Source: Scenedesmus sp. PABB004
Taxonomy: Eukaryota
Reading direction: 5' to 3'
DNA length: 64,000 nt
Assembly (NCBI GenBank): GCA_014905635.1
Contig: CM026547.1
Span: 4,650,001-4,714,000 of the forward strand
The notes under the pieces were generated by a model. The model saw nothing but the letters and a program-made list of their open reading frames with translations. It did no database searches and was not told the origin of the DNA. Positions 41,743 to 59,176 of this stretch are shown here, one piece after another; within the stretch, counting starts at the first letter, position 1, and every line of letters starts with the position of its first letter. The translations under genes were made by a program, and so were the position numbers.

Positions 41743-43677
41743 ATGGTGCGCGGCGGGCTGCCTTCCGGGGCCGCTGCGAAGGGGGCGCGCTCGGCTCACG
41801 CGCCCCGCGGCGCCGTCCCGCAGGCGCTCCTCGCACTGGCTCAGGCGTCGAGCGCGGCCGGGTGCGCTGCGGCGCTGCGGCGGCGGCGGCACCGGAGCGC
41901 GCGCCGCTGCTGCCGCGCCGGCGCCGCGGCGCCGGGACGGCCCACCCGGCCCGCTGAGCCGCCGCCGCGGCCGGCCTCAGGTACCCTGATGTGGTGGCGT
42001 TTGAGGGCAGCGCGTTCCTGATGGGCTGGTACGCGGGCGTGGCGCAGGTGCTGCTGGAAAAGAAGGTCCTCGTCCCCGGCGTCACGCGCTCGGCCGGCCT
42101 CAGCGGCGGGGCCTACACGCTCGCCCTGGCGCACCTGAATTACACCGGTGCACAAATCAACGGCCTATGGTGCGCCGGCTCCGCTGCAGCCCACTCAGCA
42201 CGCGGCCGGGGCGTCACGCCCCGAGTTGTGCTGCGCTGCACCTCCAGCTGCTGCAGCTGACAGCGCGGCGCGCGCGCGGCCCGCAGGCAGTACATGTTTG
42301 GCCGCAACGTCAGCATACCGCGCATGGTCCAGGGCGGCGTCAACGCCCTCGCCGAGGTGCGTGTGTGCACCGCTGGCAGGACCTGGCAGGCGCGCCCAGC
42401 CCACCGCGTCCCTGCGCCCGACACGCCCGGGCGCCCTCGCGCCCCGCAGCCTGCGCTGGACCAGTATTTGCCCGACGACATCAGCCCGGTGCAGGGCGTG
42501 ATGCACATCGCGCTGTCGCAGCTCAACGCCAACCGCGCGTCGCTCAACGACAGCGCCTCCTGGGTGATCAACCGCTGGGACAACAAGGTGACCGTGTGGG
42601 GCGCCGCGTCCCGGCTCGCCCTTCCCAGCCAGCCCGCCTCGCACCCTTGTTGCGCGCGCCGTGGCTTGCCGCGCTCACCGCCGCACCTTGCTGCGCTGTC
42701 AGGTGGACCTCAAGAGCTGCCTGCTAGGCACCAACGCCATCCCCTGCTTTGGGACAGCTGGCATGTTCAGCATCTTCCGCAACCAGCCCGTGATTGACGG
42801 CGGTTACGGCAACGGCTTCCCTGAGCTGTGGTGAGGCCGAGCGGCGCAGCTGCGCGCTGTACAGCGGCGCACGTGCGCGCTGCGCGCGTCGGCCCGACAC
42901 ATGCCCACGCGCCGCCCGCCGCGCGCCGTGCAGCCTGGACGCCGCGAACAAGGACTGCTTCAAGGCCGGCAGCTGGGTCGTGGGGCCGCTCGCAAACCAC
43001 ACCTGCGACCCCGTCAAGTGCGGCAAGGTGTTGTATGAGGCAAACTGCACCGTGGCGAAGCGCACCGTGCTGCGCCACTCCCTTTACAAGGTGGGGGCGC
43101 TGCCGGGCGGGGCGGCCTGCCGAGGCACAGCCGCGCCGGCCGCGCTGAGAGTCGGCCGACGCTCAGGCTGTGCCGGTTCGGGGCGGTGCCGGCGCCCCGC
43201 CCGCAGAACACCCAGACCTACGTTGACCGCTGGAAGCTGTGGAAGATCAAAGATCGCTGTCCCACGACCGCGTGGGGCAACAACACGCCGCCCAACCCCA
43301 CGCCAGCGTTTGTGCCCCAGGGCCTCGTCACGCCAGACCTGTATCCAGGGCTGTACAACCCGCTGCCCCGCTGGCCAAAGGACGCCGCGGAGCCCATGCT
43401 CGCGTGCGAGTGGCGTGAGTGCCGGTCGCATGGGCCGCGCGCTGCGCGCAGGGCTGCTGCGAGCGCCGGCGCTGGCGCTGATCAGGCAGCGCCGACGTGC
43501 TGCGTCGCCCGCCCGCCTGCCCGCCCGCCTGCCCGCCTGCCCGCGCGTCGCGCAGAAAACTACGCCATGGCGCCGCCGTTTCATCAGATCAAGGATTTCT
43601 TGGAGATGTGCTACGACCTGGGGATGCGCGACGCGGAGGCGTGGCACGCGGCCAACGCCGCCCGGCTGGGCCGGTGA
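41743..43677 (+). CDS. Patatin-like phospholipase/lipase (PNPLA family)
   Basis: VAFEGSAFLMGWYAGV (glycine-rich loop), nucleophile motif GLSGG, IFRNQPVIDGGY (DG motif), terminal YDLGMRDAEAW; about 8 exons with GT-AG introns. The start codon could be 41704 or 41743. Confidence 0.82.
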
Positions 43678-44201
43678 CGAGGGGGGGGGGGGGGTGTGCA
43701 ATCGGCCGCGCCCCCGGTGGCCCCAGGTGCTGGGCAGGGCCATTTTATTTGCGGCACGACATCGGCGGCTCCGTCCGCAGCAGGCCTCGCTGGCCGGGGC
43801 AGCACCTGCTGCGCCGCATTCGTCGCTGCGGCCTTGGCGCTGCTGGCGCAGGCCTCTGGTATGCACGGAACTTGCCAACTGATCGCCCAGCCGCGGCTGC
43901 CGGGCGCGCCAAACAATGGATCGGTCGGGCGTGTTAACGCGCACGCGTGAACGTCCAGGCATCCTGAACCCTAGTGTCAGCCCCGGGCCGCCGGGGCGTG
44001 TGACGTGATTTCACGCGCGCCGCCCCGAAACCCAGCACGCCGCCGGACACATCCCCTCACCCCCGCCGGGCGGCAGGATACAAAATGGGCGCCGCTGCAG
44101 TTTGTGCAGCAGCTGCTGCACAAACAGCTCCCGCTCGCTGGCCCGTCTTCGCGAGAGCGAGCAGGCACCTGCACTAAAGCGCATTGCTGCCCCTGCGATG
44201 G

Positions 44202-50216: not shown

Positions 50217-53102
50217 TCACGCGTCGCCGCCCTCCCCGCTCTCGAAGCGCCGCAGCCGCACGCGCCGCAGCTCCTCGGCCGCGCCCTCGTCACCGGCCGC
50301 GCCGCCAGCGGTAACCGGCTCGGCCGGGGCAGGCGCAGCGGGCGCGGCCGGTACGGCGCTGGCGGCGGCGGCGGCGCTGCTGCCGGCGCCGCTGCTGCTG
50401 CTGCCCGCGCTCGGCGGCGGCTGCGCCGCCGCGGCCGCGGCGCTGCTGCCGCCCGCCGGCGCGGCCGGCGGCGGCGCTGCGGGCGCGGCGGCCGCGCTGC
50501 TGCTGCCCGCCGCGCCGCCCGCGCTCGAGCCGGCGCGGATGTGCGCGAGCTGGCCCTGCAGGTAGTCCAGCTGGCGCTGCAGCAGCTGCTGCGTCGCCTC
50601 GTACGACGCCTGCATGACCTCCGGCGGCGCCGCGCCGCCCATGACGGCCGCCGCGGCCGCCGCGGCGGCGGCGTTGGCCGCCGCCGCCGCCGCCATCTGC
50701 TCGCCCGCGCCGCCGCCGCCGCCGGGCGGCAGCATCGCGGGCGGCATGAGCGCCAGGCCGGGCATCATCGGCGACATTCCGTACATCGCCGCCGCCGCGG
50801 CCGCCATCGCCGCCGCGGCCGCGGCCGCGTGCGCCTGCTGCTCCGGCTGCCCGCCGCCGCCGAGCGGCGGCCCCGCCGCCGCCACGAGCGCCGGGAAGGG
50901 CGCCGAGAGCGCGGGGAACATCGCGGGCAGCATGGGCACCATGCTCGCCGCCGCGAGCGCGTGCGCGTGCGCGTGCGCCTGCGCCTGCTCCAGCGCGCTC
51001 TGCTGCCCCGCGTACTGCAGCGGCGCGTTGGTGAACGCGGCCATGCTGGTCACGGGGTACCACTGCGGCACCTGCCACACCACGCCGCCGCTGCCCGGCC
51101 AGAAGCCCGGCACGCCGCCGGGCGCGCCCGCGCCCGCGCCGGGCGCGCCGAGCTCGGGCGCGCCGGCCGCGGCGGCCGCGGCGGCGGCGGCCGCGGCGGC
51201 GGCGGCGCCCGGCGCGGGCGGCCGCGGGCTGCGCGCGCGCGCCGCGGCCGCGCGCTGGCGCAGCCCGCCCGCGCTGGGGCCGTGCGGCGCCGGCGGCGCG
51301 GCCGCGCCGGCGCGCCCAGGCGCCGCGCCCGCGGCGCCCGCCGCGGGCGGCGGCGGCACGGCCGCCGCGTCTGCGCCGCCGCCCGCCGCCGCCGCCGCCG
51401 CGCCCGCGCCGCCGCCGTCCTCGCCCGCGGCGTCCGCGTCCGCGGGCCGCTCCACCGGCGGCGGGCGGAACACTGACGTGCGGCAGGTGGGGCAGTTTTG
51501 CTGCCGCTCCAGCCACGACCTGCGCGGCGACGGCGGCCGCGGCGCGCGCGCGCGCTCGGTCCCCGGCCGCCGCGCGCCGCGCGCCGTGCGCTGTGCGCCG
51601 CGCCGCGGCCGCACCGCAGGCAGTGCAGGTGGAAGACGTGGCCGCAGTGCAGGCGCTTGTTGAGCCCCGCGGGCACCATCTCCTCGCGGCAGATGATGCA
51701 GATGCCGTCGCAGCGCGCGAGGTCGGCCGCGGTGGCGTCGGGGAAGCGGTCCATGCGCGCGGTGACCTGGCGGAAGCGCAGGAAGTCGGCGATGCGCGCG
51801 CGGAAGTTGCGGAACGTCATGTACAGGTCCCGGATCTGCGCCACGCGCGCGCGGGACGCAGGGCGCGCGCGCGGGCGTGGGCGGCGCGGGCGGGCGGCGT
51901 GAGCGGCGCGGCGCGGGTGAGCGGCGCGGCGCGGGGGAGGTCGGCGGCGCGCGGCGCCGCGCGGCGCGCGTCGCGCCGCACAAGGTGCAGCGGGAGTCCG
52001 TAGTTGGTGAAGACGATGACGAAGAACACGCAGTAGACGAGCAGGTGCAGCATGTCGGTGAGGAGCTCGAGGTAGAACACCCACGCGCCCTTGCCGTCCC
52101 ACCGCCCCTCCAGCGCGGCGTCGGCCATTGACAGCCCGTACTTGAGCGCCGCCGCGCCCGCCGCGCTGGAGAGGATGACGTACTCGAACGCAAAGAGCAG
52201 CTGCACGCTGTGGCCCTTGGCCGCGAGCGTCGCCGCGATCGTGGAGTGCAGGAACGCGACGTCGATCGCCTGCGCGGCACGCGACGCGACGCGACGCGCG
52301 GCGCGGCGCGGCGCGGCGCGGCGCGCGGCGGCGGGTGAGCGTTGTGGCGGCGCGGGCGCGCGCGGTGCTGAGCTGTGGTGCTGTGGTGCTGTCCACGCGC
52401 GCGCAGCCGCGCGCCGCGCCGGCGCCGCACCAGGAGGAGGGCGAGGAAGGCGACGATGCGCGCGTGCGCGAGGCGGCTGACGCTCGGGGTGACCTCGATG
52501 TAGTCGACGCGGTCCTGCACGAGCCAGTGGAAGACCTTGACGAACGTGAGCACCGTGAACATGCCCACGAAGCCCATGTTGAACTCCTCGCGGAAGATCG
52601 TCAGCGCAAGGCAGGTCTCCATGATCGCGCTGCTGAGCTTCTCCTTGACGCGCTCGAGCTCAATCTCGCGCAGCGTGCCCAGGAAGACCTGCGGCGCGCG
52701 GGCGGGGCGTGTCAGGCGCAGCGCACTGCGATGCGGGCCGCCGGCGGCGGCAGGGGCGGCGGGTGGGCGGTGCTGCTGCGGTGCGCGCGCCTTTATGACC
52801 AGGTTGTACATGCACAGCGCCATCGCGAACGAGAGGTTGCCGACCGCCGCGACCGCGAGCTTGCTGGTGGACAGGTACATCGTGGCGGGGAAGAACCTGC
52901 GCGGGCGCGCGCGCGGGCGTGGGCGTGGGCGCCCCGGCCGGCCGGCCGGCCCCAACCGCCGCTGCCGCTGCCCCGGCGCCGCTGCCCCGGCGCCGCTGCC
53001 CCCGGCCGGCGCCGCGCACTGGATGCGCGTCGCGAAGGCGTGGTAGACCACCGCACTCGCGGCCACCACGGAGAGCACGAAGTACTTGCGTAGCGAGATC
53101 AT
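50217..53102 (-). CDS. HRD1: ERAD E3 ubiquitin ligase HRD1/synoviolin
   Basis: MISLRKYFVLS..HAFATRIQ|FFPATMYLSTSK, VFLGTLREIELERV, ETCLALTIFREEF, KVFHWLVQDRVDYIE, LLFAFEYVIL, YGLPLHL|IRDLY, RING-H2 CIICREEM..KRLHCGHVFHLHCLR|SWLERQQNCPTCR, ending ELRRVRLRRF. Confidence 0.96.
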   Translation of the reverse strand: MISLRKYFVLSVVAASAVVYHAFATRIQCAAPAGGSGAGAAAPGQRQRRLGPAGRPGRPRPRPRARPRRFFPATMYLSTSKLAVAAVGNLSFAMALCMYNLVIKARAPQQHRPPAAPAAAGGPHRSALRLTRPARAPQVFLGTLREIELERVKEKLSSAIMETCLALTIFREEFNMGFVGMFTVLTFVKVFHWLVQDRVDYIEVTPSVSRLAHARIVAFLALLLVRRRRGARLRARGQHHSTTAQHRARPRRHNAHPPPRAAPRRAAPRVASRRVPRRRSTSRSCTPRSRRRSRPRATACSCSLRSSTSSSPARRARRRSSTGCQWPTPRWRGGGTARARGCSTSSSSPTCCTCSSTACSSSSSSPTTDSRCTLCGATRAARRRAPPTSPAPRRSPAPRRSRRPPAPPTPARAPCVPRARGADPGPVHDVPQLPRAHRRLPALPPGHRAHGPLPRRHRGRPRALRRHLHHLPRGDGARGAQQAPALRPRLPPALPAVRPRRGAQRTARGARRPGTERARAPRPPSPRRSWLERQQNCPTCRTSVFRPPPVERPADADAAGEDGGGAGAAAAAAGGGADAAAVPPPPAAGAAGAAPGRAGAAAPPAPHGPSAGGLRQRAAAARARSPRPPAPGAAAAAAAAAAAAAAGAPELGAPGAGAGAPGGVPGFWPGSGGVVWQVPQWYPVTSMAAFTNAPLQYAGQQSALEQAQAHAHAHALAAASMVPMLPAMFPALSAPFPALVAAAGPPLGGGGQPEQQAHAAAAAAAMAAAAAAMYGMSPMMPGLALMPPAMLPPGGGGGAGEQMAAAAAANAAAAAAAAAVMGGAAPPEVMQASYEATQQLLQRQLDYLQGQLAHIRAGSSAGGAAGSSSAAAAPAAPPPAAPAGGSSAAAAAAQPPPSAGSSSSGAGSSAAAAASAVPAAPAAPAPAEPVTAGGAAGDEGAAEELRRVRLRRFESGEGGDA

Positions 53103-53590
53103 GGCGCGCCGCCGCGCCCCCCGGGGGCGCCGCCGCTGCTGCTCCGGCCGCGCCGCGCCGCGCCGGCGGCCGCAGCGCTCCGCGCCGGCGCTGCGTGGGC
53201 AGGCGGGGCCCCAGGCCCGATCGTGGGGCGACCGGCGGGTGAAGCGGGTGCTGTTTGGCGTGTAGCGAGCCTGTTTTGATGGCAGTGCAGCTGCCCTCCC
53301 CCGCTCTGCCGCCGAGGCCCGGCGCCGGCTCTGCGGGTGACTGCGGAAGGCCGGGCGGAGCGTCGGGGAGCAGGCCAGGCGGGCGTGGAACTTTCAGGGC
53401 ACAGCACAATGACCTCGAACGGCGCAGAATGACCTGCGTGGCGCGCCTGCGCGGCCCCACCCAACGCCCAGACTGGGACAGATCTTGTGCCGACGCGACC
53501 GTGTGGGCCGATCCTCTGCAGCTGGCCCACGCGCGGCACAGCACCGGCCGATGCCACGCCTCGGCGGGCCGTGAAGGCCGCACAGCGCGC

Positions 53591-56457
53591 ATGAGGCCCC
53601 AGCTCTGCCCCTCGGGGCGGGGCGGGAGTGGGGGACGGCCCCCCACGCGCATGCGCGTCGTGACGCTGGACGGCGTGGAGGCGGCGCTGCGGGCGCCGAC
53701 GCCGCGCGGCGGCGAGGCCGCCCCGGCGCCCCGCGGCGCGCCGCTGGCGCGCCTGGAGTCGTCCTTCGCCGCCTCGCTGTCGCACGTGCACCCCGCGCCG
53801 CAGCGGCGGCGCGCGCGCAGCGCCGCGCTCGCGGCGCCGCCGCGCCCGCCGGACCACGGCGGCGGCGCCGCTGCCGGCAGCGCCGGACCCGCGGCGCGCC
53901 CGGGCGGCGGCGCGCCGCTGCCGGGCCTCGCGGGGGCGGAGCAGCTGCCGCCGGAGGCGGCGCGCGAGCTGCGCGCCGTGATGGACCTGTGGCACCTCCA
54001 CAGCAGCAGCGCCCAGCGCTCGGCGTCGGGCGGCGCCAGGGGGTCGTCGCCGCGCGCGCTGCTCGCGCCGGCGCCGCGGCTGCTGACCGCGGAGGAGGAG
54101 GCGGCGCTGGGCAGCATCGTGCAGCAGCACCGCCGCCTGGCGCAGGTGTACGCGGAGCACCCGGGCGTTGCGGCGGAGCTGGAGCGCGAGCTGCCGCTGC
54201 GGCAGCAGCTGGCGGCGCAGCAGCACGCGCGCGCCGGCGCCGGCGCGCCGAGCGGCGACGACGACGACGGGGGCGCCGACGGCGGGCGGCGGCGCGGCGC
54301 GCGCGTGCGCTGGCCGCCGCCGCTGAGCGCGGGCGAGGTCGCGGCGGTGCGCGCCATGCCGCGCGCGTGGCGCGCGATGCTGCCGGAGCTGGCGGCCAAG
54401 GCCCACGAGCTGCTCGTCGCGTTCAACATAAGGTGAGGCGCGGCCCAGACGCGGCGCGGCGCGGCGCCGCGCTCGCCGCGCGCCGCCCGCGCCGCCGCTC
54501 GCGCTCACGCGCCGTCCGCGCCCGCGCCGCGCTCCGCGCCGTCCGCGCAGCCTGGTGTTCCACATGCTGCAGTTTGCGACGCGCCGCAGCGCGAGCGTGC
54601 CGACCGAGGACCGCACCGTCGCGGGGCTCGCGGGCCTGCAGCAGGCCGCGGCGCGCTTCGACCCCGCGCGCGGCGCGCGCTTCGGCACCGTCGCGGCGGT
54701 GTGGATCCTGCAGCACATGCAGCGCGCCGCCGACGCGCAGGGCGGCGCGCTGCGCACGCCGGGGCGCCACGCCGCGATGGCGCGGCGCGTGCTCGACACG
54801 CACGGCACGGCGGCGCTCTTCGGCATCGCGGACCGCCCCGACGTGCTGGCGCAGGTGCGGGGAGGGGCCGGGCGCCGCGCCGGCAGGCCCAGCGCGGGGG
54901 GCGCGCCGCCGCACGCGCTCCGCCGCACGCGCTCGCCGACGCGCGCCGCCGCGCGCGCGCCGCCAGGTGGCGGCCGCGTTCAACACCAAGCCGGCGACCG
55001 TGCTGCGCGCGGTACGGGCGTTCACGGCCTCGCAGTACGCCGCGTCGCTGGATGACGTGGCGGCCGGGCCGGGCGGCAGCCGCATGGAGCCGAGCGCGGC
55101 GCCGTGGTCGGCGATGCTCACGGCGAGTGACCTGGAGGACGAGGGCGAGCAGGTCGGCCCCGGCGCGCCGGCGAGCGAGATGGCGGGCCACGGCTCGGTG
55201 CTCGCCGCGGCGGGGCAGCTGCCCGACTGGCTCGACCTGCAGGCGCCGGCCGGCGGCGGCCGCGAGGGCGGCGGCGCCGGCGGCGGCGCGGCCGCCGCGA
55301 CGGCGGCGCTCGCGGGGCACCTTGCGGCGCTCGCGCCGCGCGAGCGCGCGGTGATCACCGCGCTCTATGGCGACGGCCTGGGCCTGGCCGGCGGCGGCGA
55401 TGGCGCGGCGGCGCCTGCCGCGGGGCGGCGGCGCGCGACGGCGCTGCGCGCGGAGGGCGCCGCGCCCGGCGCGGCGCCCGCCGCGCCGGGCGAGCGCGCG
55501 CCGCGCGCGATCCAGGGCGGCGTGACGCTGGGCGAGGTCGCCGCGCAGCTGGGGTGCACGGTCGAGTGCGTGCGCCAGCTGCGCGTGCGCGCGTTCCGCA
55601 AGCTGCGCGCCGCGGTCGGGGTCGACGCGCCGCGCTCGCGCGCGAGCGCTGGGGGCGCCGGGGGCGCCGGCGCCGGCGCGTCCGCGGACGCGCCGCCCGG
55701 CAGCGAGGAGGCGCTGACCGCGGCGGTCGCCGCGTGCGGCCCGACAGCGCGCCCGCTCATGCTGGCGCTCGCGGAGCACGTCCGCGTCGCGGGGCTGCCC
55801 ACGCGCGGCGCCGAGGTCGTGGACGGGCGCTGTGTGGGCGTGTACCTGTGGAAGCTGGTGCGCCTGCACGCCAAGGGGCAGCTCAGGCCCGTGCTCGCGG
55901 CCGCGCTGGACGCCGCCGCGCCGGGCTGGCGCGGCCTCGACGCCGCCGGTGGGCCGCCGCCGGTGTGGCTGCGGCGCGTGCACGCCGCGGCGCGCGCGGG
56001 CCGGCTGCAGGAGGAGCTGGCGGCGCACGCGGCGGCCGAGGAGGCTGCGGCGGCGGCGGCGGCGGCCGCCGCTGAGGCCGTGGCCGGCGCCGAGGCCGTG
56101 GCGGCCGCCGAGGCGGCGGGCGTGGAGGCGGCGCCCGCCAGGGCGGCGGCGCGCGGCAGCGACCGGCTGGCAGCCGCGCGCGCGAGCCGCGCGGGCGGCG
56201 CCGTCGAGGCCGCCATTCGCGCCTGCAAGCGCGCCGACACGCAGCGCGCGCTGCGCGCGCTCGCCGACCACGTCGCCGCCGTCGGGGCCATGCCGGGCAG
56301 CGCCGCCGTGGAGCGTCGCGGCGTGCGGGTCGGGCGCTACGCGGAGGTGCAGGCGAGCAAGGCCCGCGCGGGGACGCTGCCGCCCGACATCCGGGCCGCG
56401 TTTGAGGCCATCGCGCCCGGCTGGCTGGCGCGCGCGGCCCGCGGCCGCGGCCGCTGA
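53591..56457 (+). CDS. Divergent sigma-70-like factor (regions 1.2, 2, 3, 4) with two C-terminal helicase-associated (HA)-like repeats
   Basis: RLLTAEEEAALG (1.2); ELLVAFNI|SLVFHM..EDRTVAGLAGLQQAAARFDPARGARFGTVAAVWILQHMQRAADAQGGALRTP (2); VAAAFNTKPATV..SLDD (3); LAPRERAVITALYG..TLGEVAAQLGCTVECVRQLRVRAFRKLR (4). Introns 54433-54550 and 54855-54966. The start is uncertain (53279, 53591 or 53651). Confidence 0.8.
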
Positions 56458-57001
56458 GGGGAGGGAGGGCCCTCCATGTACGCTAGCGAGGGGGTCGGCG
56501 CAGGAGTTGGGCGGGCGCGCGTGGCGCCGCCATGATCGCGGCGCTGCGGTGTGTGATGGTGCGTGCTTTGTGTGCAGCAGCAGCAGAGGAGTGCTCCTGT
56601 CGTCGCGTAGTTGTGCAAGCGCCGGATGAACGGGCGCGGCGCGTGTCGGTGTGGTCTCCGGTGCCGGGCGCGGCGCCGCGCGCATGCGGCGGCGATCGCG
56701 AGTTCTGGTCGGGCGAGAGATCGGGGAGTTGTTGGTGTTGGCCGTGATGGCGTCTGCCTGAGGCCGCGATGGGCTGTGGAAGCTGACCCGCTACGCCGCC
56801 CCCCGCCGCGCCGCGCCCGGCCAGCTCCCCGGCGCCCGCAAGCCAGCGCGGCCCGCTCTCGCCCCGCGCCACACCCGATCAGGCGGTTCCGTCCGCGCCC
56901 GCGCGCCGCACGCGCGCACGGGTGCAGCTGCGCCAGCTCTGCTGTCGGCGCCGCCGCGGGCTGCTCGATCCCCGAGGCGTGGCGCGCTGCCGCGCGGCGC
57001 G

Positions 57002-59176
57002 ATGGCCGCGAGCAATGTACGTGGTTTGTGCTGCGAGAGCAGGCGGGGCGACAGCGGCGGCAGCAGCAGCAGCGGCAGCAGCGGCAGCGGCAGCAGCGGC
57101 AGCGGCAGCAGCGGCAGCGGCAGCAGCGGCAGCGGCGCCAGCGGCGGCAGTCAAAGCCCACGCGCGCGCGCACCGCCGGCGCACGCACGCAGGACGCGGG
57201 CTTTGGCTGGGCGCCGGTCGGGGCGCGCCTGCTGCAGGAGCTGAGCGCGGTGACCCCGGCGGAGGAGAGCGCGCCGACGGCGCGGTGGGCCAAGACCTGG
57301 CGCGAGCTGCGGGCGATGCCGACGATGCGCGAGCTGCCGGGCGCCGTGCTGGGGCACATGCGCCTCCTTCACGCCGTCGACACCGTGCCCCGCGGTGCGC
57401 CGCGGGGGCCGCGCGGCAGAGGCGCGGCGCGGCAGGCGGCGCCGCGCGCGCCGGGCGCGCCGCCCGCGCGGCCGACGCGGCGTGCCGCGTCGCAGGCGGG
57501 CTGTGCCAGGGCGGCGCGCTGAAGGAGGCGCTGCGGCGCTACGAGCGGCTGTGGCTGCCGCTGCTCGCGGCGGCGGCGCCCAGCAACGGCGGCGGGGGCT
57601 ACGAGGGCCTCGTGCCGCCGCTCGACGTCGCGCTGATGTGGCACCTGCACCGCCTGCAGCCGACGTACGAGGACGACTGCCGCCAGCTCAAGGGCCGCGA
57701 CGGGCGCAGCCTGACCGCGGCGATGCACGTCGCGCCGGCGCAGGCGTTTGCGTTCAGCGACGGCGCCGACGCGGCGGGCGCCGCCGCGGCCGCGGCGTGG
57801 CGGCGCGCGTGCCCGGGCGAGCCGTTCTGGCCGCCGCCGCCGCCGGGCGCGGCGACGGCGGCGTTCCGCACCCGCCTCGCCGCCGACCTCGCGGCGGTCG
57901 CGGTACGCGTGCCGCTGCTCACGCACCAGCTGCTGCGCGCCTGCTACGTCTCGCCGCCCTTCCTCGCGCGCGCTCTCGACCGCTACAGCCGCTTCCTATT
58001 GCTGCGCAAGCACCACCTGGAGCTGCAGCACCCGGTGCCGCCGCTCGACGTCACGCTGCTGTGGGCGACGCACATGAGCCTGAGCGGGCTCTACGCGGCA
58101 GACTGCGCGTCGCTGCTCGGCCGGCGCTTCCTGGACATGCCGGGTGCGGCGGCCGCGCGGCCGCAGCGCGCCGCGGCGGGCGGGCCCGGCGCGGCGCTGC
58201 GGGTGGGCGCTTGCCGCGCGCCTTTCGCGGTGCCGAGCCCGCCGCGCGCTCAGGCGCGGGCGCGAGCCCCTGGCTCGAGCGCGACGAGGCGGGCCCGTGG
58301 CGCTTCCACTTTACCGACACGCAGCGCGCCTGGCGCGACGAGTTTGACGGTGCGCCGCGCGGCACGCGCGGCGGGGCCGGGCGCTCGCGCGCGCGCGCCG
58401 CTGCGCCCCCTGCCGCCGGCGCGCGCCCACCACCGCACGGCGCTGCGCGGCGCGCAGAGCCGTTTGTGGTGCCGGGCAGCGGCTACGTGCCCATGGACAG
58501 CCCACACCCGGCCGAGGCGCGGCTGCCGCGCGCCGCGCTCGCCGCGTTTGAGGCGCCCCCGCCGGCTGAGGCCGGCAAGCCGCCGCCGGCGCCGGCGGAG
58601 CCCGGCGCCGCCGCGTGGCGCGGCGGCGCGCACGTGCTGTACCTGGCCTGGCTGTCCGATCCCAACCTGGCCCGCCAGGCGGCGTACGAGGAGGAGCGCG
58701 CCGCCGCCGCCGCGCGGCCGGCACCGGCCGCCGCGCCGGCCGCGCCGCGCACGGCGCCGGCGCCCGCCAAGAAGGCCGGCGGCGGCGGGCTGTTTGCCTG
58801 CTTCGGCTGCGGCGGCGGCGGCGCCGCGGACGACGACGGCGGCGCCGAGGCGGACGCGGCGGCGGCCGCGGACGCGGCGCGCGCCGCGGGCCCCGTGCCG
58901 CCGGCGCGGGTGCCGCTGCTGGGCGAGGCGGAGCTCACGCGGCTCGCGGCCGCCTTCCCTGCCTTCAAGGGCCTGCCGCACAGCGCGGCGCACCCCTACT
59001 GGCGCCAGCTGCTCGCGCCGTGCCCCGGCGGCGCGGCGCCGCCCGGGGGCCCGAGCGAGGAGGGCGCCGAGGTGGAGCTGCTCGCGTCGGCCAACGGCAG
59101 CAACGCGGCCGGGTTTGACCAGGCGGGCGCGTACGAGGTCGACGTCGGCCGCGCCCCGGCGCTGACCTGGGGCTGA
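57002..59176 (+). CDS. GRDP1/DUF1399-like (glycine-rich domain protein family)
   Basis: HMRLLHAVD, ALRRYERLWLPLL, LVPPLDVALMWHLHRLQPTYEDDC, LARALDRYSRFLLL..PVPPLDVTLLWATHMSLSGLYAADC (duplicated motif), FTDTQRAWRDEF. Exon 1 (MAASN) at 57002-57016 is tentative. Confidence 0.8.
57052..57150. repeat. (CAGCAGCGGCAGCGG)-type microsatellite in the first intron of the GRDP-like gene
   Basis: Alternating CAG/CGG triplet array visible directly. Confidence 0.85.

Follow-up and report, generated by a model that had tools for sequence, protein, structure and literature searches.

Chloroplast transcription in green algae is thought to depend on one canonical sigma factor, and a review assigns these organisms a single plastid sigma (PMC3630183). 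The known chlorophycean example is Chlamydomonas RPOD1 (Cre03.g194950), whose coding sequence, as given in the Methods of a 2026 preprint and translated here by eye, corresponds to a protein of ~750 amino acids. In that by-eye translation the canonical motifs are retained: region 2.2 reads DLVSEG with its Glu, region 2.3 reads FRFGTYAHWWIRQ with the Tyr and Trp-Trp, region 4.2 reads TRERIRQIE, and IRQ is likewise kept. The protein ends ~38 residues past region 4.2 without a repeat resembling the helicase-associated (HA) domain. A recent preprint shows the algal plastid polymerase to be much more elaborate than had been expected. Against this background we describe a gene of Scenedesmus sp. PABB004 (Chlorophyceae, Sphaeropleales, Scenedesmaceae), read from the sequence as three exons on the + strand at positions 53591-56457 of a 64,000-nucleotide stretch of contig CM026547.1 (hereafter the window), which encodes what its sequence identifies as a divergent sigma-70 factor fused to C-terminal HA domains.

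The encoded protein shares several attributes with RPOD1 and with SIG1-6 of land plants: it is a nuclear-encoded member of the sigma-70 family, it has a variable N-terminal extension, it carries regions 1.2 to 4.2 in order, and the only bacterial-type polymerase of the host cell is plastid-encoded. Unlike RPOD1, members of the window protein's family carry other residues at these motif positions, are lengthened by long insertions both ahead of region 4.1 and within region 4, and bear two or three HA domains in addition. Because RPOD1 keeps its motifs and lacks an HA tail, the architecture of the window protein is not that of the known chlorophycean sigma, and the proposal of an initial annotation of this DNA that the protein is non-canonical held up against the by-eye translation. 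Bacterial group 1-3 sigmas (RpoD/SigA, RpoS, FliA) supplied the best NCBIfam and Protein Data Bank (PDB) matches, and region 4 passed Pfam; in contrast to these bacterial proteins, however, the window protein scored far under every curated equivalog cut-off, and its gene is eukaryotic, intron-bearing and terminates in an HA array. The repeats of that array resemble the HA domain PF03457, exemplified by a Micrococcales protein (P0021) and by the structure 2KTA, in their length of ~65 residues, their pattern (...G.W/Y.......G.L......L....PGW), their tandem arrangement and their modelled fold of helix, hairpin, helix and helix. They differ from typical HA domains in being joined to a sigma factor rather than a helicase, in reading VG.Y in place of LG.W, and in that the window copies fall below the Pfam threshold.

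Exon 3 was 100% identical over 496 residues to a deposited protein of 858 amino acids, 'hypothetical protein HT031_000891 [Scenedesmus sp. PABB004]' (P0001), and the spliced reading from the second in-frame ATG, at 53651, reproduces the deposited protein; residue numbers given here for the window protein follow P0001. This identity places the DNA in Scenedesmus sp. PABB004 instead of Chlamydomonas, which had earlier been taken as the source organism. The motifs and coordinates that the initial annotation had quoted were correct, from the first in-frame ATG (53591) to the TGA stop (56455-56457), including DRTVAG in region 2.2 and FGTVAAVW in region 2.3.

Membership of the sigma-70 family was supported by several comparisons. 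Pfam Sigma70_r4 (PF04545) scored 36.5 bits on P0001 and 38.1 bits on exon 3, above its cut-off of 24.1 bits. All 15 PDB sequence matches at E<=0.001 were sigma factors (7 RpoS, 3 SigA, 3 RpoD and 2 FliA), the best of them (E 1.8e-6) extending over region 2 (residues 255-332) and region 4.2. The best NCBIfam model was the cyanobacterial RpoD/SigA subfamily TIGR02997, over residues 144-374, followed by RpoS, sigma-32 and other sigmas. In an alignment of nine family rows with four canonical sigmas (A4), regions 1.2, 2, 3, 4.1 and 4.2 occurred in canonical order, with region 4 at residues 481-577. Exon 2 scored 82.9 bits with a local sigma hidden Markov model (HMM); region 3 reached just 5.6 bits with its local HMM, its ...SLDD segment aligned with the canonical rows, and the TIGR02997 alignment extended to residue 374. 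When the whole window was scanned in six frames (601 pieces), sigma matches were confined to the two frames of this gene, and the window thus contains no second sigma gene.

The full-length AlphaFold model, built on 150 aligned sequences, had a mean predicted local distance difference test (pLDDT) score of 60.8. It was confident (pLDDT 88-98) at regions 1.2, 2.1, 4.1 and 4.2, the helices of regions 1.2 and 2.1 scoring 88-96, and disordered at the N-terminus, between regions 3 and 4.1, and at residues 505-545 inside region 4 (pLDDT <50). Among the matches listed by Foldseek for this model, 50 of 50 were chains belonging to initiation complexes of bacterial RNA polymerase, with E values of only 0.026-0.30; one of these chains, 4xln_F, is SigA. 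A search of the ESM Atlas with the sigma part returned generic sigma clusters only, and the top cluster, mostly eukaryotic with diatoms commonest, serves as a lead only. Taken together, these findings identify the protein, by its sequence, as a real but very divergent sigma-70 family member with canonical region order, in agreement with the initial annotation.

A phmmer search with the 858-residue protein against 1.84 billion cluster representatives gave 2809 matches at E<=0.001, 16 at E<=1e-10 and 3 at E<=1e-30. We examined 28 of the 150 listed matches as sequences, and 19 of the 28 proved to be exon-sized fragments of this gene in other algae, comprising eight of the exon-1 type, seven of the exon-2 type, one that reads through intron 1 (P0005) and three of the exon-3 type (P0002, P0003 and P0011). 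Both intron positions are conserved, because the ends of the relatives' fragments coincide with the exon ends in the window. Most of the pieces came from metagenome or run assemblies; one cluster represents a transcriptome of Enallax costatus (EukProt), likewise a member of the Scenedesmaceae, and on this basis the sigma-like family spans at least the Scenedesmaceae. The Enallax transcript piece (P0155) comprises exon 1 only and stops exactly at the conserved boundary of exon 1 and intron 1, which is what a retained intron would give. Cluster look-ups of 30 phmmer matches named only Enallax costatus and bacteria, with no canonical algal sigma among them. Word-index protein searches with exon 3 and with residues 205-360 of P0002 each returned only the query itself, both being swamped by low-complexity words, and a word-index search of P0004 against longer proteins gave 0 matches.

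The initial annotation had noted altered residues in region 2, and these replacements turned out to be shared across the family. In A4, the Glu of the region 2.2 motif QEG was gone in 9/9 family rows. Within region 2.3, the Tyr of STYATWW was replaced by V, T, M or A, and the first Trp by V, R, L, M or A, again in all nine rows. The Arg of IRQ was also replaced in 9/9 family rows. Every family row retained the second Trp as well as the Gln. The four canonical rows retained the Tyr and an aromatic pair. The window copy was additionally changed at the Leu of DL, giving DRTVAG. Within region 4.2, I or V stood in 4/4 family rows where canonical rows have the first Arg of TRERIRQ (A4 and a second alignment, A1, which includes P0002, P0003 and P0011), and the same number of family rows (4/4) carried an insertion of ~45-60 residues between regions 4.1 and 4.2. 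In primary sigmas, binding to the beta-prime clamp helices, wedging open of the -10 element and recognition of the -35 element presumably depend on the residues replaced here. The changes thus point to altered chemistry, not necessarily to a function that was lost.

As the initial annotation had stated, two related repeats follow region 4. They occupy residues 618-685 and 783-850, are 40% identical to each other (E=2e-6), carry a net charge of +5 each, and were the only HA-like matches in the six-frame scan of the window. Two exon-3 relatives, P0002 (which matches the query at E 3.8e-44) and P0003, each displayed Sigma70_r4 followed by Pfam HA in three stretches, with HA scores of 72.9 and 46.2 bits, respectively, against a cut-off of 28.4 bits, and the window repeats matched those of P0002 and P0003 column for column. 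In the third exon-3 relative, P0011, region 4 was followed by one alignable repeat. The same phmmer query matched P0021, the Micrococcales HA-repeat protein, in eight stretches (E 3.6e-10), and P0021 itself scored 75.2 bits on Pfam HA. An HMM of its ten repeats scored 40.2 bits (best domain 25.4) on the last 258 residues of the window protein, compared to a maximum of 9.4 bits in 2000 composition-preserving shuffles, while an HMM of seven algal repeats scored 54.7 bits on the window tail compared to a maximum of 10.6 bits in the shuffles. Alignment of the window's two repeats with the bacterial repeats by hhalign gave a probability of 96.8% (E 3e-10).

The repeats were also compared by structure. 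The AlphaFold model of the 253-residue tail (mean pLDDT 78.5) folded each repeat as a helix, a short hairpin and two further helices. A structural search of 48,161 chains ranked 2kta_A first, with 67 of its 74 residues aligned on repeat 2 (model residues 178-253) at a root-mean-square deviation of 2.8 A and a Z score of 7.0, below the value of 8 under which common arrangements can also match; the next rows were generic long helices at Z <=5.6. The same chain was the best PDB match of a sequence profile (A3), at E 0.0015 and as one of two matches at E<=1, and P0002 alone matched it weakly (E 0.48). 2KTA, solved by nuclear magnetic resonance, represents one domain of a 'putative helicase' from Bacteroides, and we take it to be filed under PF03457. 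A phmmer search of the PDB with P0021 gave 0 matches at E<=1, and a search of the ESM Atlas with the P0002 tail gave no usable match. Taken together, orthologues, profiles and fold indicate that the repeats after region 4 are HA domains; the earlier HA assignment therefore stands by way of the relatives' Pfam matches, the profiles and the fold, and not by a direct Pfam match. There are two HA domains in the window protein, plus a possible relic of a third, and up to three in the relatives. Residues 696-713, between the two repeats, may represent the relic of a middle repeat, P0002 having three, but this is only a hint. The HA domain is poorly understood, the phrase 'nucleic-acid binding' attached to it being Pfam's own guess.

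G+C content in the window was ~80% throughout (0.71-0.83 per 2 kb), and its six frames contained 153 open frames of at least 250 amino acids. Because stop codons are rare at ~80% G+C, the openness of a frame is worthless as evidence of a gene, and we took such evidence from homology, splice structure and codon periodicity. In the predicted frame, all three exons displayed coding periodicity, with G+C of 0.97-0.99 at third codon positions (GC3) and 0.56-0.68 at second positions (GC2). Region 3, region 4 and both repeats lie on one exon, exon 3, and in 150-nt windows from region 3 through both repeats this periodicity was unbroken and in one frame (GC3 0.92-1.00, GC2 0.56-0.76), with no gap at the interval from region 4 to the first repeat or at the linker joining the two repeats. 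It was absent from the flanks, over 350 bases upstream and 440 bases downstream, and in this window GC3/GC2 periodicity proved a good discriminator between coding and non-coding DNA. Furthermore, region 4 and the HA repeat or repeats shared one open reading frame in the three exon-3 relatives, whose composition is much less biased, so that the fusion of region 4 and the repeats proposed by the initial annotation is supported at the level of the reading frame. A precomputed Pfam pair, PF04545 together with PF03457, was already on one of these relatives. These results indicate that the sigma70-HA fusion, as read from its sequence, is real and is encoded by an intact spliced nuclear gene. Literature searches turned up no description of a sigma-HA fusion, of its conservation in a green algal family, or of the loss of region 2.3 aromatic residues throughout such a family. 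Both components, the sigma factor and the HA domain, are known on their own; the fusion is undescribed in the literature searched, though it may be visible in domain databases.

The fusion of a divergent sigma with HA domains suggests a new kind of chloroplast transcription factor. A green algal cell contains just one polymerase of the bacterial type, the plastid-encoded one, and this protein, which retains every sigma region in order, most likely acts on that enzyme. It would enter the chloroplast and dock on the plastid-encoded polymerase in a sigma-like manner, and its altered -10 and -35 contacts would be used on the promoter. Because region 4.2 sits on the -35 element in the holoenzyme, the HA domains would reach upstream DNA or nearby RNA, and the basic HA domains beyond region 4 would thereby contact nucleic acid upstream of the -35 position. 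We consider it about an even chance that the protein serves the plastid polymerase as a sigma-like factor, accessory or alternative, beside a canonical RPOD; it would then contribute to accessory or alternative promoter selection, possibly in competition with RPOD for core enzyme.

The role proposed for the HA domains resembles that put forward for PEPS1 in a preprint, in which its SAP domains, a flexible additional means of binding DNA, are proposed to help recruit the Chlamydomonas plastid polymerase to promoters (10.64898/2026.06.23.732312). The likeness is one of functional analogy only, as PEPS1 is a separate subunit with another fold and no sequence relation to the window protein. The preprint makes no mention of HA domains, and nothing ties HA to that complex.

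A more specific version of the accessory-factor reading, which we put forward tentatively and regard as rather doubtful, is that Scenedesmaceae possess a second, non-melting sigma-like subunit beside RPOD, whose HA array would bind DNA or nascent RNA upstream of -35 and thereby re-target or block the plastid polymerase at specific promoters. If true, the rule of 'one sigma factor in green algae' would be broken, and a sigma-derived activator or decoy would have been made by fusion with a domain hitherto known from helicase-type proteins of bacteria. A conserved sigma-like protein with an HA array and altered residues at the -10 and -35 contacts would be a new kind of player in green algal chloroplast transcription, either as an additional sigma or as a sole one that has been re-engineered in an unusual way. 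The HA domain, for its part, gains a testable context: it adjoins a helix-turn-helix of known promoter position, which predicts where HA domains bind and what they bind.

Several findings weigh against an accessory sigma-like factor. In the Pfam comparison of the spliced protein, Sigma70_r4 alone passed its cut-off: Sigma70_r2 (PF04542) scored 17.4-19.9 bits, under its cut-off of 24; Sigma70_r3 (PF04539) had no match in P0001 or exon 3 at E<=10, and none was reported for r1_2; and Pfam HA (PF03457) had none at E<=10 on P0001, exon 3 or four pieces of the tail. The TIGR02997 score was 46.4 bits compared to a curated cut-off of 384.5. In the structural check proposed for the C-terminal repeats, 2kta_A was the top match of the chain search, and Foldseek against the PDB returned nothing at E<=0.001, either for the C-terminal model or for the full-length one. 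The C-terminal model was built on only 5 aligned sequences, and Z scores below 8 can reflect common helical arrangements, which limits the match to 2KTA. With respect to function, extracytoplasmic function (ECF) sigmas also do without the region 2.3 aromatic residues, yet open promoters, and loss of these residues is therefore no proof of lost melting. Plastid targeting, binding to the polymerase core and nucleic acid binding by the HA domains are each inferred. Finally, the single-sigma view of green algae fits a re-engineered sole sigma as well as it fits a new exception.

That last point introduces the explanation that fares best among the alternatives, namely that the protein is the sole plastid sigma of the Scenedesmaceae, a fast-diverged RPOD orthologue that gained HA domains while remaining responsible for all recognition and melting of promoters. 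The review that gives green algae one plastid sigma (PMC3630183) agrees with this, as do the sigma regions themselves, all of which are in order and conserved across the family. No canonical algal sigma from these algae turned up, but the searches could not have ranked one high. Nevertheless, 9/9 family rows carry substitutions at residues that RPOD1 and the canonical bacterial rows retain, RPOD1 lacks the HA tail, and no protein of RPOD1 length (~750 amino acids, by eye) was found among the phmmer matches at E<=1e-10, from which it follows that the family is not specially close to the known chlorophycean sigma. We consider a sole sigma fairly unlikely.

We likewise asked whether the protein may act independently of any polymerase, as a DNA- or RNA-binding protein of the plastid nucleoid or elsewhere that uses the region 4 helix-turn-helix together with its HA domains. 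The family-wide replacement of core-contact and melting residues in region 2 would be expected of such a protein, as would the disordered insertion of ~45 residues that splits regions 4.1 and 4.2 (pLDDT <50 at 505-545) and the basic character of the HA repeats. Regions 1.2, 2.1-2.4, 3.0, 4.1 and 4.2 are, however, all kept in order across at least 3 exon-3 fragments and 16 exon-1/2 fragments, and the helices of regions 1.2 and 2.1 are modelled at the high confidence described above. If the helix-turn-helix were all that counted, retention of the full set of regions would be difficult to account for, and we regard a polymerase-independent role as unlikely. That the gene is decaying, or that it is an artefact produced by long open frames at ~80% GC, is very improbable: the many open frames in the window and the lower Pfam r2 and HA scores of the window copy relative to its relatives would fit it, but the frame is intact, the intron positions are conserved, strong GC3/GC2 periodicity occurs only in the predicted frame and only inside exons, homologous pieces exist in many other algae, and 0/2000 shuffles reached the HA score.

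Coordinates of the features discussed above are summarized in Table 1. Exon 1 encodes a low-complexity N-terminus, region 1.2, a family-specific block (WPPPLS...AWRAMLPELA) and the start of region 2.1. The order along exon 3 is region 3, a long acidic or disordered linker, region 4.1, the insertion, region 4.2, the HA repeats and a tail.

Table 1. Features of the sigma-like gene in the window (positions of the window; pLDDT from the full-length model; i-E, independent E value)
Feature	Position	Strand	Remarks
Possible N-terminal extension, 20 codons	53591..53650	+	5 Arg, no acidic residue; codon periodicity flat upstream of 53591
Exon 1	53651..54432	+	GC3 0.98; ends in phase 2; same end in eight exon-1-type fragments
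Region 1.2 (LLTAEEE..LGSIVQQ)	54080-54145	+	TIGR02997 alignment begins at residue 144
Intron 1 (GTGAGG...CAG)	54433-54550	+	Splicing yields P0001; P0005 reads through unspliced at the same position
Exon 2	54551..54854	+	Sigma region 2.1-2.4 plus start of 3.0; Pfam Sigma70_r2 19.9 bits (cut-off 24)
DRTVAG	54609-54626	+	Exon 2; region 2.2
FGTVAAVW	54681-54704	+	Exon 2; region 2.3
Intron 2 (GTGCGG...CAG)	54855-54966	+	P0002 and P0003 start at the homologous exon-3 start
Exon 3 with stop	54967..56457	+	Single frame; 100% identity over 496 aa; GC3 0.92-1.00 per 150-nt window
Region 3.0-like segment (VAAAFNTKPATVLRAV...ASLDD)	54967..55056	+	Aligns with canonical sigmas in A4; without Pfam Sigma70_r3 match
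Region 4.1 (LAALAPRERAVITALYG)	55321..55380	+	Alignments A1 and A4; pLDDT 90-97
Region 4.2 helix-turn-helix (VTLGEVAAQLGCTVECVRQLRVRAFRKLR)	55519..55617	+	Pfam Sigma70_r4, residues 547-577; pLDDT 97-98
HA-like repeat 1, P0001 618-685	55732..55935	+	Local HMMs: 29.3 bits (algal), 13.3 bits (bacterial HA repeats)
Possible relic of middle HA repeat (VWLRRVHAAARAGRLQEE)	55966..56019	+	Weak: partial local HMM matches, -3.7 to 0.6 bits, i-E 0.032-0.83
HA-like repeat 2, P0001 783-850	56227..56430	+	Local HMMs: 23.0 bits each, 33.1 combined

The choice between the two in-frame start candidates bears on the N-terminus. The start used for the deposited protein (53651) may be too short for a targeting peptide, and with the 20 additional residues encoded from the first ATG the N-terminus is compatible with an organellar presequence. 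In the Enallax costatus orthologue (P0155), ~33 residues precede the conserved RVVTL motif, giving a longer N-terminus that is compatible with the same feature.

The genomic surroundings support the earlier description of the gene as nuclear-encoded, as does the presence of introns. Its neighbours encode an E3 ligase and a protein with a GRDP-like domain, and it therefore sits in ordinary nuclear DNA. The first of these neighbours, a multi-exon gene for a synoviolin/HRD1-like E3 ubiquitin ligase, lies on the - strand at 50217-53393, divergent from the sigma-like gene; it matched PF25563 (TPR_SYVN1_N) at 131.5 and 101.4 bits in two frames and contains a RING-like stretch (CIICREEM...CGHVFHLHCL). 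Downstream, on the + strand at 56787-59165, is the gene with the GRDP-like domain, which matched PF07173 at 64.4 bits over residues 294-439 of the frame translation. The G+C content drops locally to 0.71 at window positions 42001-44000, compared to ~0.80 elsewhere. A long repeat of the trinucleotide type, at ~57050-57200, is situated after the sigma-like gene and before the GRDP-like domain; its translation gives a run of ~30 Ala in one + frame, Q/R repeats in another + frame and, from the - strand, C/R repeats.

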